A DNA stretch of 64,000 nt from Alphaproteobacteria bacterium. GTDB taxonomy: Bacteria > Pseudomonadota > Alphaproteobacteria > GCA-2731375. The position numbers and the translations under genes were made by a program. Numbering within the stretch: the stretch's first letter is position 1; each line of letters begins with the position of its first letter. Under the pieces are notes generated by a model. It ran no database searches and was not told where the DNA came from. It was given only the letters and a program-made list of their open reading frames with translations. This document shows positions 25,324-43,500 of the stretch, piece after piece. The stretch is taken from positions 5,760,001-5,824,000 of the forward strand of contig CBDDPY010000002.1 of NCBI GenBank assembly GCA_965232515.1. Reading direction: 5' to 3'.

Positions 25324-26202
25324 TTAGGTGGTGTTGCGTCTGCCCCGACGGCGGCGCAGCGCCGTGACGCCCAGGCAGAAGATTCCGCTGCCCAGCAGCG
25401 CGAGCGACGATGGTTCCGGGATCGCCAGCGTGTTGAGGGGGATGGGTTCGCCGAAGATGAAGTCGTCCATGACCACGCCGTCGCCGGGTCCCGATGCGGG
25501 CGGCATGAACGTACCGTTCGACAGCAGGGTCGAACTGCCGGTAGTGACCTTGGCGCTGCCGATCAGTTCGCCGGCGTCGAAGACCACGCCCAGGAACGAC
25601 AGACCCCCGTTCGGGGACGTCAAGACTTCTCCGGCGAACAGCGAGTTGCCGTCGAGGTCGAAAAGCTCCAGCGTCGTGGCGCCGGCCAGCTCGACGTCAT
25701 TGAAGACGATGCCAAGACCGGTTGAAGCGGCCTGTTCATCCGGATTCGCCGGATCGAAGAAATCGACAAACGTCATGTTGCTGCCAATCGGCGAGAACAT
25801 GCGTTGTTCGCTGAACGGGATGAAGTCGTTGGGAAACCCGAACCGCGGCGGCGCGGCCGTGCCCGCGTTCGAGCTCAACAGGAAACCGTTGCCCGGCGTC
25901 GAAAACTCGATGCCTCGTGCGCGTGGACTGAAATCGGCATTGAAGAAGTCGCCGGGGAACAAGTTTGGATCCGAGACCGCATCCGGCGCCGCGTCCCAGT
26001 TGATCTGACGGCGACCGCCGACAAAATTCTCAGGATTGTTTGGATTGAGCGCGCCGAGCGCGTTCCGGAAATCGTCGACCGTGCCCAGAATGCTGGCGGC
26101 ATTGGCGCCCGAGGTTTCGAAAACGATCGGCGCGGCCTGCGCCGTGGCCGCCGAGAACGCAAGTGCTGCCGCGCATAGTCCCGCCACGAATCCCGGTTTC
26201 AT
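25324..26202 (-). CDS. PEP-CTERM sorting-domain protein (single unit)
   Basis: Signal peptide ending AQA; C-terminal IPEPSSLALLGSGIFCLGVTALRRRR. Confidence 0.88.
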   Translation of the reverse strand: MKPGFVAGLCAAALAFSAATAQAAPIVFETSGANAASILGTVDDFRNALGALNPNNPENFVGGRRQINWDAAPDAVSDPNLFPGDFFNADFSPRARGIEFSTPGNGFLLSSNAGTAAPPRFGFPNDFIPFSEQRMFSPIGSNMTFVDFFDPANPDEQAASTGLGIVFNDVELAGATTLELFDLDGNSLFAGEVLTSPNGGLSFLGVVFDAGELIGSAKVTTGSSTLLSNGTFMPPASGPGDGVVMDDFIFGEPIPLNTLAIPEPSSLALLGSGIFCLGVTALRRRRGRRNTT

Positions 26203-40380: not shown

Positions 40381-40662
40381 ATGATGCATCGTTTCAAATC
40401 CAAGGCCGACCGCCGCGACGCCGTGCGGATCGAGCGGCCGAAGGACGGCCGGATCGTTCTCGACGACGGCGCCGCGCCCATCGACTGCCGCGTCCGCGAT
40501 ATTTCGACCACGGGCGCGCGCCTCGAATGCGAGGATGTCGCGGCCTGGCCGACGGAACTGGTGCTGCTGGACAGCGCCGGCAACCGGATCGACTGCGAGG
40601 TCGTCTGGACCTCCGGCACCGAGATCGGCGTCCGCTTCAAAACCCCGCGCCCGCTGTTTTGA
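40381..40662 (+). CDS. Stand-alone PilZ domain protein
   Basis: RRDAVR (RxxxR) and DISTTG (DxSxxG) c-di-GMP motifs; IGVRF. Confidence 0.85.
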   Translation: MMHRFKSKADRRDAVRIERPKDGRIVLDDGAAPIDCRVRDISTTGARLECEDVAAWPTELVLLDSAGNRIDCEVVWTSGTEIGVRFKTPRPLF

Positions 40663-40758
40663 CCACAAAGACGCAAAGACACGAAGAAGCGAAGGGTTGT
40701 TAGGCGCTGCGCGCCAACCGGTCCTCTTTGGTTCTTTGTGTCTTCGCGTCTTTGCGGT
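40662..40758. repeat. 27-bp imperfect inverted repeat filling the convergent intergenic gap (probable bidirectional terminator)
   Basis: accacaaagacgcaaagacacgaagaa (40662-40688) / ttctttgtgtcttcgcgtctttgcggt (40732-40758). Confidence 0.7.
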
Positions 40759-42660
40759 TCAAATCCCTCTGTTCGATTTCGCCCTCACCGTACGCACTGC
40801 GTAGCGTCGCCCGAATACCAGCAGGCCGCCGAGACTGACCAGCGCCAGGCCCAGGCCGCCCGGCTCCGGCACGGCGGCAAGCCGCGGCGTCAGCGTCGGC
40901 AACGTCGCCTGCGCCGGCACGTCCAGGATGAAGGCGGCGCTGCAATCGCCTGGTCCCCCTGGACCGGGGAAGCAGGAGCCATTGGTCGAGGCCTGCAGCC
41001 CATTGAAGGCGATGGTGACGGTGTCGCCGAGGTCGGGCGGCAGGGCTTCGACGGCGAAAAACAAGAGCGGCGTCAGGCTCAGCGCGTCGGCCCCGAGCGT
41101 GCCGGCGAACCGGAACGCCTGCGCCGTCGCGTCGGAAATGGCGATGTCGCCGAATTCGACGGCGAACGCCACCAGATCGCTGTCGTTCAGAACGGCGCCC
41201 GCGGCGAAGTTGGCGTCGTCGAAGCTGAGGAAACCGCTGACCGGGTCGCCCGCGTCGAGCCCGGCGGTGACGCAATCCGTGACGCAGGCGGCGCTCAAGT
41301 CATAGGTGATGACGCCAGCTCTTGCCGGTGCCGCAACGCCGGCCGCCGCCAGGAACGCGAACGCGGCGGCCAGGGGCGCGGCGAGGGAGGCTCCGCGCCT
41401 CCGGCCGCCGGCCGACGGCGTCACCGGTTGCCGTCGGCGGCGGGCGGTGAACAGGCCGAACAGGGCCGCGCCCAACAACGCCAGCCCGCCCGGCTCGGGC
41501 ACGTCGACAATGCGCGGCAGCAACGGTCCCAGGCGGCCGCGGGCCTGATCGCCAAGCTCGGCGTCGCCGCATCGGTCACCGATGCAGGACGCGTTGGTCG
41601 AGGCGATGACGCTGCCGACCAGGTTGGCGAAAAAGAAGTCGCCGCTATCGGGCGCGATCGCATCGAACAGGGCGATCGCGATGAGGGACAGCGCCAGCGT
41701 GTCGGGGTTGTCCAGCTTTGCGTTGAATATCACGGCGTTTGCCGTCGAGGCATCGATCGTGACGCTGCCGAACTCGACGGCGAAATCGACGAGGGCGTCC
41801 TGGTCAACGAAGGCGTCCACCAGAAAGGCGGCGGCGTCGAGGGCGAAGAAGCCGCTGCCCTTGTCGCCGACGTCGAGGCCGACGAGGTCGCAGTCGAGCT
41901 CGCAGGTGATGTCGAAATCGTAAGCGATGACGCCGGCCTGCGCCGGCGCCGAGACACCGCCCGCCGTCAGCAGGGCGAGCGCCGCGGCCAGGGGCGCCCC
42001 GAGGAGAAACAGGCGCCCCTGGCCGGCCGCCGGCGCGGCGGCCGACCTCCGCCGGCGCAGGACGGCTAGCCCGATCAGGGCCACGCTCATCAGTCCGAGC
42101 CCACCCGGCGCCGGAACGGCGGCATGCGACGGCGCCTCGATGGAACTCGGCCTTAGGTTGACGCTCGGCATCTTCGCATTGGCAGGGCTGCTGCCCGGGT
42201 CGACCACGATGCAATCGCTGTCGGCGCAGGCGCCGTCGATCGACGCGAAAACCCTGCCGAGCCGAAGCGTGATCAATTCGCCCTGATCGGGACCGAGCGC
42301 TTCCGCCGCGACGAATTCAGCGAAGTCGATCGTCAGCGCATCGTTCCTCAGTTCGCCCTGAAAGAACAGTCCGACAGCCGTCGTGTTGTCGAGGCTGATG
42401 TCGCCGAAGTCGATGGCGAAGGCCGTGACATCGGCGGTGCCTAGGATCGCGCCGGGCGCGAAGTTGGCGTCGTCGAAGGTGATGAAACCGTCGCCGATGG
42501 GATCGCCGAGGTCGAGACCGAATTCGGCGCAATTGAGCCGACAGTCGGCCGTGATGTCATAGGTGATCGTGCCGGCTTGCGCCGTTGTCGCGTCGCTGGC
42601 GACGACCAGCAGGACGGCGGTCGCGAACCCAGCGACGAGGAAATGCTTGCGTAGGGGCAT
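40759..42660 (-). CDS. Three-unit PEP-CTERM polyprotein: 3 x [signal peptide - Cys-paired domain - PEP-CTERM]
   Basis: AGGAG RBS and ATG at 42660. Cleavage motifs AQA|GTITYD, AQA|GVIAYD, ARA|GVITYD. Sorting motifs VPAPGGLGL..RRRR, VPEPGGLAL..RRRR, VPEPGGLGL..RR. No internal stops. Confidence 0.88.
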   Translation of the reverse strand: MPLRKHFLVAGFATAVLLVVASDATTAQAGTITYDITADCRLNCAEFGLDLGDPIGDGFITFDDANFAPGAILGTADVTAFAIDFGDISLDNTTAVGLFFQGELRNDALTIDFAEFVAAEALGPDQGELITLRLGRVFASIDGACADSDCIVVDPGSSPANAKMPSVNLRPSSIEAPSHAAVPAPGGLGLMSVALIGLAVLRRRRSAAAPAAGQGRLFLLGAPLAAALALLTAGGVSAPAQAGVIAYDFDITCELDCDLVGLDVGDKGSGFFALDAAAFLVDAFVDQDALVDFAVEFGSVTIDASTANAVIFNAKLDNPDTLALSLIAIALFDAIAPDSGDFFFANLVGSVIASTNASCIGDRCGDAELGDQARGRLGPLLPRIVDVPEPGGLALLGAALFGLFTARRRRQPVTPSAGGRRRGASLAAPLAAAFAFLAAAGVAAPARAGVITYDLSAACVTDCVTAGLDAGDPVSGFLSFDDANFAAGAVLNDSDLVAFAVEFGDIAISDATAQAFRFAGTLGADALSLTPLLFFAVEALPPDLGDTVTIAFNGLQASTNGSCFPGPGGPGDCSAAFILDVPAQATLPTLTPRLAAVPEPGGLGLALVSLGGLLVFGRRYAVRTVRAKSNRGI

Positions 42661-42724
42661 AGTCTGACTCCTGAACAGAACGTTCGTCCCCCACAGCGAA
42701 CATATATCATTCATGTCGGACGTT

Positions 42725-42829
42725 CGTTCAGTTTGTCAAACGATTTTTTGAGTCATTGCTGTTCGAGAATGTTCTATGAAACGAACGATTGAAAAATAAA
42801 TCATTCAAAATCGTTTGACAAACCGAACG
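42725..42829. promoter_or_regulatory. Mirror-image divergent promoters / operator pair (23-bp inverted repeat containing TTGACA on each strand)
   Basis: cgttcagtttgtcaaacgatttt (42725-42747) / aaaatcgtttgacaaaccgaacg (42807-42829), 1 mismatch; AT-rich region with repeated GAACG/CGTTC. Confidence 0.65.
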
Positions 42830-42894
42830 ATTGATCCTTAATTATGCCGGTCGCACCGCATGAAGGGATTTTTGCGGAAAGGAGACATCGGCAC

Positions 42895-43500
42895 ATGCAA
42901 ACCCAGAGCCTTTGCCTGCCGCCGCGCGGTTCGGCGATCCGGCGGGCCGTGCCGGCCGATTGCGGCGAGCTGGACCGGCTGGCGCTGATGGCGTTCCGGC
43001 GCGCGGCCCCGGCCCACTACACGGCCGAACAGACCGAGCGTATTCTGCGCTTCCTGATCAAGATCGACCGCGGGCTGATCACCACCGGCCGGCTGTTCGC
43101 GCTGCAGGACGACGGCCGTCTTGTCGGCTGCGCCGGCTGGTCCAGCGGCGGCCCGCTGATCCGTGGCGCCGCCGACGCGGTCGGGAGCTGGGCCGGCGCC
43201 GGCCGGAACGGCGACGGTCCTGGGCCCGACGGTCGGCCCGGGGCCGAGATCCGCTGCGTTTATGTGCACCCGGACCAACAGCGCCGCGGCGTCGCCAAGC
43301 GCCTGCTGGTGACCGCCGAGCGCGACGCGGCCGCGGCCGGACACCGGCGGTTCTCGCTGATCGCGACGCTGCCGTCCGTGCCCTTCTACCTCAGCCGTGG
43401 CTACCAGGCCGTTCAGCCCCTCGACATTCCCATGCCCGAGGGCGCGCCCGTGCAGGGCCTCGCTATGGCAAAGGACGTCGCCGCCCGCTGCGCCCGCTGA
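42895..43500 (+). CDS. GNAT N-acetyltransferase
   Basis: LVGCAGWS, IRCVYVHPDQQRRGVAKRLL and ATLPSVPFYLSRGY; AAGGAG RBS. Confidence 0.88.
   Translation: MQTQSLCLPPRGSAIRRAVPADCGELDRLALMAFRRAAPAHYTAEQTERILRFLIKIDRGLITTGRLFALQDDGRLVGCAGWSSGGPLIRGAADAVGSWAGAGRNGDGPGPDGRPGAEIRCVYVHPDQQRRGVAKRLLVTAERDAAAAGHRRFSLIATLPSVPFYLSRGYQAVQPLDIPMPEGAPVQGLAMAKDVAARCAR

Follow-up and report, generated by a model that had tools for sequence, protein, structure and literature searches.

A conserved alphaproteobacterial reading frame concatenates three PEP-CTERM sorting units and may encode a three-cargo precursor of the XrtA pathway

The subject of this study is a gene on the minus strand of a window of 64,000 nucleotides (the whole stretch analysed, positions 5,760,001 to 5,824,000 of contig CBDDPY010000002.1 in the Alphaproteobacteria bacterium assembly GCA_965232515.1), in which a normally single-unit PEP-CTERM protein occurs as a conserved concatenation of three units within one reading frame. 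Each unit consists of a signal peptide ending in AxA↓G (the arrow marks the predicted signal peptidase I site), a four-cysteine domain of ~145 residues, the motif VP[AE]PGG, a hydrophobic helix and an arginine cluster. Judged from the sequence, we consider it fairly probable that the gene encodes a natural three-cargo precursor of the XrtA pathway, from which signal peptidase I and exosortase would release three proteins. The original prediction, made from the letters of the window and their open reading frames, had proposed such a polyprotein; its anatomy stands and the comparative evidence favors functional internal signals, whereas for cleavage and 1:1:1 release we go no further than that prediction did and only infer them.

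A single open frame of 651 amino acids runs from 42714 to the stop codon, and the predicted uninterrupted stretch of 633 codons is present within it. The unit positions given in the original prediction, with domain starts at 42573, 41934 and 41316 and PEP motifs at 42117, 41502 and 40872, are all right. The ATG at 42660 is almost certainly the start codon, because AGGAG lies 8 nucleotides upstream (Shine-Dalgarno duplex of -6.9 kcal/mol) and the two fused relatives that we identified, P0002 and P0003, both begin with MPH at exactly this point. One ribosome-binding site and one ATG serve the entire frame.

The three domains are paralogous, with 31-43% identity to each other and with two cysteine pairs and other conserved positions common to all, and each unit matches a profile of the domain at E values between 4e-64 and 5e-69. 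Every unit retains the invariant residues C11, C15 and G56 and the near-invariant G19, L20, G23, F51 and C115. The three-unit layout is therefore more than a product of chance. By hydropathy and inspection, the first 29 residues form a Sec-type signal peptide, in which a basic n-region is followed by a hydrophobic core and the site AQA↓G. Both internal signals show the same anatomy, with a basic loop, an h-region and small residues at -3 and -1. Neither Pfam nor NCBIfam has a model for the domain itself. The AlphaFold2 prediction for domain 3 is confident (predicted local distance difference test score 87.9, predicted template modeling score 0.78) and has nine strands; it found no neighbor in the PDB by Foldseek (best E 0.23, template modeling score at most 0.26) and only unnamed clusters, below 0.9, in the ESM Atlas. 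A complex prediction for domains 2 and 3 gave a score of 0.01, which speaks neither for nor against their co-assembly.

A profile built from the three domains was searched against 1.84 billion representative proteins, giving 111 matches at E<=0.001 and 42 at E<=1e-10. Besides the window gene, only P0002 (424 amino acids, two sorting units) and P0003 (617 amino acids, three) contain more than one sorting unit, and their junctions are homologous to those in the window; the original prediction had suggested looking for proteins that combine several PEP-CTERMs with internal signal peptides. The other true relatives carry a single matched stretch and are mostly 170-230 amino acids long, and the seven sequences inspected (P0004-P0008, P0013 and P0019) each comprise a signal peptide, the domain and a PEP-CTERM. 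PF07589 was found at E<=0.01 in 35 of the 60 sequences of the family alignment, three of which are the window domains cut without their tags. For the 57 single-unit homologues the median length of the pre-domain stretch is 24 residues, and this stretch ends in an AxA-type site that falls within one residue of the alignment column at which the window domains start. The internal signals share this format of single-unit N-terminal signals. P0111 has two half-domains in tandem, one terminal PEP-CTERM and no internal sorting signals, and represents an ordinary domain duplication. P0063 and P0081 proved to be unrelated repeat proteins and were rejected as multi-unit members. A word-index search with the whole protein yielded no shorter relatives, low-complexity words having probably swamped its 8000 candidates, and scans of genome and metagenome contigs with the fused-protein alignment yielded no relative.

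Comparison of the three fused proteins suggests a history of whole-unit exchange. P0002 consists of the first signal peptide, a unit-2 orthologue (85% identical), junction 2 and a unit-3 orthologue (93%). In P0003 the first signal peptide leads into a domain resembling unit 2 (78%), after which come junction 1, another domain of unit-2 type that has diverged further (51%), junction 2 and a domain resembling unit 3 (47%). Where the window gene reads signal 1, unit 1, junction 1, unit 2, junction 2, unit 3, these unit orders differ, and we conclude that on at least two occasions whole units were acquired, dropped or swapped, in every case without loss of the frame. Measured against P0003, identity is 68-77% for the internal tags and signals and 30-51% for the domains (Table 1). 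The five internal signals of the three proteins all end in PAxA↓G, those of the window in PAQA↓G and PARA↓G. Junctions 1 and 2 of the window gene are 56% identical to each other, which suggests that a unit with its junction already attached was duplicated as the array expanded. The best explanation for the origin of the gene would be descent from tandem paralogous genes of the single-unit family of ~200 amino acids. As a separate observation, the signal peptide of P0002 (alignment columns 1-244) looks hybrid, with a first half like signal 1 and a second half like signal 2, as expected if unit 1 had been removed by in-frame recombination between two signal peptides.

Hidden Markov models of the sorting signal agree in part with this anatomy. 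The original prediction expected three PEP-CTERM matches; PF07589 does find three stretches in the whole protein (25.1 bits), whereas TIGR02595 finds two. When the units are scanned separately against the cut-offs of 16 bits for TIGR02595 and 20.7 bits for PF07589, unit 2 passes both with the highest scores of the three (25.2 and 25.7 bits, respectively), unit 1 passes TIGR02595 (17.4 bits) and falls below the Pfam cut-off (15.4 bits), and unit 3 passes neither. The genome has 49 TIGR02595 matches, and in 47 of these the distance from the start of the motif to the stop codon is 24-44 residues. PEP1 and PEP2, which start 452 and 247 residues before the stop, are the only exceptions, and the third sorting signal of the protein is alone in lying at the extreme C-terminus. 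According to part of the account in Haft 2006 (PMC1569441), 87% of PEP-CTERM signals are followed by fewer than 10 further residues.

The six hydrophobic segments of the protein alternate with the three domains, all acidic, and with two short basic loops (residues 203-215 and 408-422) that contain Arg/Lys and are free of Asp/Glu. Under the positive-inside rule basic loops stay cytoplasmic, and together with the acidic domains these loops lead us to predict six membrane spans, with each of the three domains on the periplasmic side. Periplasmic loops of ~150 residues in polytopic proteins are a matter of ordinary Sec/SecA translocation. The machinery for processing is also present: a search for the exosortase of the genome, which the original prediction had recommended, returned one PF09721 match (229 bits) that scores 315 bits with TIGR03109 (cut-off 208) and is identified as XrtA with a fused EpsI domain. 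Its gene adjoins one for a PEP-CTERM/XrtA-system glycosyltransferase (TIGR03087), and XrtA thus shares its genome with the many PEP-CTERM paralogues counted above.

In the model that we propose, the chain would insert through Sec as a six-span protein, signal 1 crossing from inside to outside and placing domain 1 in the periplasm. The helix of PEP-CTERM 1 would then cross from outside to inside, leaving the arginine loop in the cytoplasm to serve signal 2 as its n-region, and the later units would follow the same course. Signal peptidase I would cut after each AxA, giving mature N-termini GTITYD, GVIAYD and GVITYD, and XrtA would cut at each VP[AE]P motif. The outcome would be three separately sorted mature domains in a fixed 1:1:1 ratio, plus two hairpin remnants each made of a helix, an arginine loop and a second helix.

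A number of observations count against this three-cargo precursor, and they are set out here together with the alternatives on which they bear. The simplest alternative, that an assembly or sequencing error has joined three separate genes, is barely credible. Repeated paralogous units could in principle mislead an assembler, and the sequencing run X3 has no contig over 41988-42610 (unit 1 and junction 1), although this hole proves nothing. Against an error, run X1, which may come from the source sample itself, yields a contig at depth 78 that shows no difference from the window over 40600-42900. X3, a different sample of the same study, has contigs (41225-41416 and 41400-41684) that span junction 2 and are likewise identical, and X4, ~90% identical in the region, covers 41380-41829, which takes in some of junction 2, free of gaps. 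None of the four runs has a listed indel. For junction 1 the only DNA witness among the runs is X1, and a homologous form is encoded in an independently assembled relative. Because independent contigs reproduce the frame without indels and two independently assembled relatives share its junctions, the frame is real and the three-unit gene is not an assembly artefact, a point that bears on the concern about the junctions raised with the original prediction. Contigs of X5, an RNA library, span portions of units 1 and 3 as well as upstream sequence; the evidence for transcription consists of these contigs from one library, which possibly contains DNA. As for the hole in X3, which is flanked by identical contigs on either side, it could be a gap in coverage or could reflect a strain that lacks unit 1 as P0002 does.

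It is also conceivable, although quite improbable, that the gene is in effect an operon without stops, in which units 2 and/or 3 come mainly from internal initiation and the read-through fusion is a by-product. The original prediction was correct that neither linker contains a Met, and it overlooked an in-frame GTG at Val413 in junction 2. This GTG aligns with a Met in P0003, and P0003 has a Met at both junctions (MGQGRLFLF... and MPPAGGQQRGASL...), aligned with Ala213 and Val413 of the window protein, just where a signal peptide would start. Initiation at these points would yield ordinary signal peptides, MTPSAGGRRRGASL... and MGQGRLFLF.... In junction 1 of the window the candidate is CTG217, with AGGGG only 3 nucleotides upstream. 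These are the points in favor of separate initiation. On the other side, junction 1 offers nothing but this CTG with its 3-nucleotide spacer, no ATG, GTG or TTG lying between the arginine cluster and the cleavage site of unit 2, and a start there would give a signal peptide without a basic n-region. GTG413 lacks a Shine-Dalgarno sequence (duplex of -2.1 kcal/mol, against -6.9 at the true start), and X4 has GCT at this codon and TTG at the next. Moreover, ribosomes arriving from the upstream unit would still read through and make the fusion. We interpret the junction Mets of P0003 as what remains of start codons from genes that were once separate. In the window, unit 2 has lost its start and has kept all family-invariant residues, and it follows that this unit can probably be made only within the fusion. 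In our view, no other single argument speaks as strongly for the fused chain as the functional product as a unit that lacks a start and is nevertheless intact.

Slightly less improbable would be a tolerated accident, in which tandem paralogues were fused by loss of stops, the units after the first can be done without or go to the wrong place, and the rare lineage that carries the fusion is in the course of losing it. The extreme rarity of the layout is in keeping with this: only three such proteins emerged from a search of 5.8 billion clusters, the domain is found in none of the 32 other genomes of the family (which, as sampled, is the whole order), and a junction profile applied to 401 genomes from the phylum gave full-length matches free of stops at the two junctions of the window itself and nowhere in the 400 others. 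That survey scored 15 candidates per genome with a sequence-specific profile and is for this reason a weak test of generality; the five longest of its other matches are ordinary C-terminal PEP-CTERMs followed by a stop. Across 33 family genomes, no other open frame carries two TIGR02595 matches among the 150 listed of 241. An accidental fusion is also favored by the ease with which frames stay open in DNA of 66% GC, by the loss of a unit from P0002 and by the Met relics of P0003. Against it, the fusion is older than a domain divergence of up to 50-70%, and every unit has nevertheless kept its invariant Cys, Gly and Leu residues and its sorting motifs. The junctions are better conserved than the domains, even if their A/L/G-rich composition somewhat inflates the identity. 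The listed codon changes are mostly synonymous in unit 3 (12 of 14, run X5) and wholly so in PEP2 and its helix (all five in residues 377-402, run X4). Taken over the whole of X4, the listed changes divide into 12 synonymous and 12 non-synonymous, with 47 further differences beyond those listed.

Unlikely, yet the least so of these alternatives, is an uncut or partly cut six-span protein of the inner membrane that presents its three domains to the periplasm, processing being limited at most to signal 1 and the final PEP-CTERM. The internal h-regions span ~20 residues, as in transmembrane anchors, and are thus on the long side for signals that are cleaved. Cuts at the internal AxA and PEP motifs, and the use of a non-terminal PEP-CTERM by exosortase, are predictions from sequence. 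As stated in part of Haft 2006 (PMC1569441), PEP-CTERMs are C-terminal "virtually without exception", and the few in atypical positions are possibly non-functional examples. Unit 3, when scanned alone, reaches 17.2 bits with the Pfam model, below the cut-off, and has no TIGR02595 match at E<=0.01. Unit 1 carries PAP in place of PEP; VPAP is, however, common among the PEP-CTERM tails of this genome. What argues against an uncut protein is that the five internal signals of the fused proteins keep their PAxA↓G at exactly the place that it has in single-unit homologues, the first beta strand following without a linker, that the internal PEP2 is the best PEP-CTERM match of the protein and the 7th of 49 in the genome, and that a role as a pure anchor would not demand conservation of AxA and VPEPGG. 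Taken together, functional internal signals, as expected of a three-cargo precursor, are favored because the junctions are conserved in two relatives and are more conserved than the cargo, because the loops obey the positive-inside rule, because unit 2 has no ATG, GTG or TTG start of its own and because XrtA is present.

If the precursor is processed as proposed, several consequences would follow. Exosortase would recognize its signal in the middle of a chain, signal peptidase I of a bacterium would take a natural polyprotein apart as a matter of routine, and surface or matrix proteins could be held at a set stoichiometry by fusing their genes. PEP-CTERM has been defined as strictly C-terminal, and internal copies have been regarded as probably dead. 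In the window gene the internal tags show higher conservation than the cargo beside them, and the middle unit can probably be made only as part of a fusion. The gene also offers a ready substrate for mapping the exosortase site, since each internal cut would leave a hairpin of ~60 residues and a defined C-terminus. A broader proposal, which we put forward tentatively and regard as doubtful, is that the PEP-CTERM helix, arginine loop and signal peptide form a portable cut-and-restart cassette representing a general and undescribed mode of biogenesis, in which one frame could carry several exosortase cargoes at fixed stoichiometry, the sorting signal need not be C-terminal and the three domains might co-assemble in the matrix once released.

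Several known systems resemble the gene in part. Canonical substrates of XrtA (EpsH; TIGR02595, PF07589), in so far as parts of Haft et al. 2006 (PMC1569441) describe them, share the N-terminal-type signal, cargo without known homology, the VPEP-type motif with hydrophobic helix and arginine cluster, and a genomic setting in which XrtA lies beside exopolysaccharide-type glycosyltransferases and dozens of PEP-CTERM proteins are encoded. They differ from the window gene in that two of its sorting signals run directly into a new signal peptide, 247 and 452 residues before the stop. Single-unit family members such as P0004 (187 amino acids) and P0008 (191 amino acids) have the same four-Cys beta domain (E down to 1e-22), placed directly after AxA and followed by a PEP-CTERM at the end, but with one unit per gene. 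Tandem PEP-CTERM paralogues, in the same genome and in relatives, are likewise arranged head to tail on one strand. One such cluster lies at C2:1204439-1206385 (+), where three paralogous PEP-CTERM genes (frames of 278, 277 and 229 amino acids) have near-identical VPAPGGIGLLALGAAG tails. Each gene of such clusters has its own stop and start, whereas in the window gene the stops and the start at junction 1 are gone.

The FbcH protein of Bradyrhizobium japonicum is reportedly a cytochrome b/c1 polyprotein that is cut at an internal signal peptide (work by Thony-Meyer and colleagues, about 1989-1991). It would thus resemble the proposed precursor as a bacterial membrane protein in which an internal signal restarts translocation and one gene gives two proteins, and would differ in having one cut, two unrelated partners and neither a C-terminal sorting signal nor an exosortase. 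A cytochrome b/c1 fusion in the present genome, as an in-house instance of internal signal handling, was looked for and not found; cytochrome c1 is encoded there by a separate frame of 287 amino acids. Viral envelope polyproteins are cut by host signal peptidase at internal signals, as outlined in parts of the reports on hepatitis C virus core-E1 (PMC5402940) and on Gn/Gc of SFTSV, the virus of severe fever with thrombocytopenia syndrome (PMC5113920). There too, stop-transfer helices alternate with internal signals and signal peptidase separates the products; theirs is the eukaryotic endoplasmic reticulum and viral cargo, whereas the window gene has bacterial paralogous repeats and a second cleavable tag on each unit. 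The original prediction knew of no described example, and our searches of the literature on PEP-CTERM and exosortase (main texts) turned up no such precursor either.

The features of the gene are collected in Table 1.

Table 1. Features of the three-unit gene and its upstream region, in window positions, with residue identities to P0003
Feature	Position	Strand	Identity to P0003	Remarks
5' intergenic region	42661..42843	-		Shared with the divergent GNAT gene; AGGAG 8 nucleotides before ATG
Whole coding sequence	40759..42660	-		633 codons plus stop at 40759-40761; identical 5545-nucleotide contig in run X1
Signal peptide 1	42574..42660	-		Residues 1-29, ...TTAQA↓G; homologous to the N-termini of P0002 and P0003
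Domain 1	42118..42573	-	42/142	Residues 30-181; four-Cys, beta-rich; profile E 5.3e-69
Internal PEP-CTERM 1	42043..42117	-	17/25	Residues 182-206; VPAPGG, helix, RRRR; genome-scan match C2:5802043-5802117
Junction 1, predicted cytoplasmic linker	42016..42042	-	6/9	Residues 207-215, SAAAPAAGQ; no ATG, GTG or TTG
Internal signal peptide 2	41935..42015	-	20/26	Residues 216-242, GRLFLLGAPLAAALALLTAGGVSAPAQA↓G (...APAQA↓G)
Domain 2	41503..41934	-	74/144	Residues 243-386; 85% identical to unit 1 of P0002
Internal PEP-CTERM 2	41431..41502	-	18/24	Residues 387-410; VPEPGG, helix, RRRR
Junction 2, predicted cytoplasmic linker	41395..41430	-	6/12	Residues 411-422, QPVTPSAGGRRR; in-frame GTG at 41422-41424
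Internal signal peptide 3	41317..41394	-	18/26	Residues 423-448, GASLAAPLAAAFAFLAAAGVAAPARA↓G (...APARA↓G)
Domain 3	40873..41316	-	67/142	Residues 449-596; AlphaFold2 model all-beta, nine strands
Terminal PEP-CTERM 3 and 14-residue basic tail	40762..40872	-		VPEPGG, helix, RR; conserved in P0002 and P0003

The gene has a convergent PilZ gene on one side and a divergent GNAT gene on the other and so stands by itself, ~770 kb from xrtA. Its 5' intergenic region contains one sigma-70-like site (42821-42793), and a scan for intrinsic terminators 3' of the gene found none. The same upstream region holds a 24-nucleotide inverted repeat (42724-42747 and 42807-42830, 96% complementary), a further repeat pair (42762-42792 and 42804-42834), two copies of ACGTTCGT at 42680 and 42720, and several repeats of the CGTTCG/CGAACG type; these repeats may be binding sites for a regulator. 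The convergent neighbor (40381-40662, +) encodes a stand-alone PilZ-domain protein of 93 amino acids (PF07238, E 5e-9) and lies 97 nucleotides from the stop of the three-unit gene. On the strength of adjacency, it is possible that it provides a link from cyclic di-GMP to surface or matrix functions.

PEP-CTERM proteins are patchily distributed in the family, 12 of the 33 genomes having TIGR02595 matches, from 1 to 71 per genome. The window holds one other PEP-CTERM match (25345-25422, minus strand; C2:5785345-5785422), which scores 28.4 bits and ends an open frame of 640 amino acids; it is an ordinary example, with 32 residues from motif to stop.

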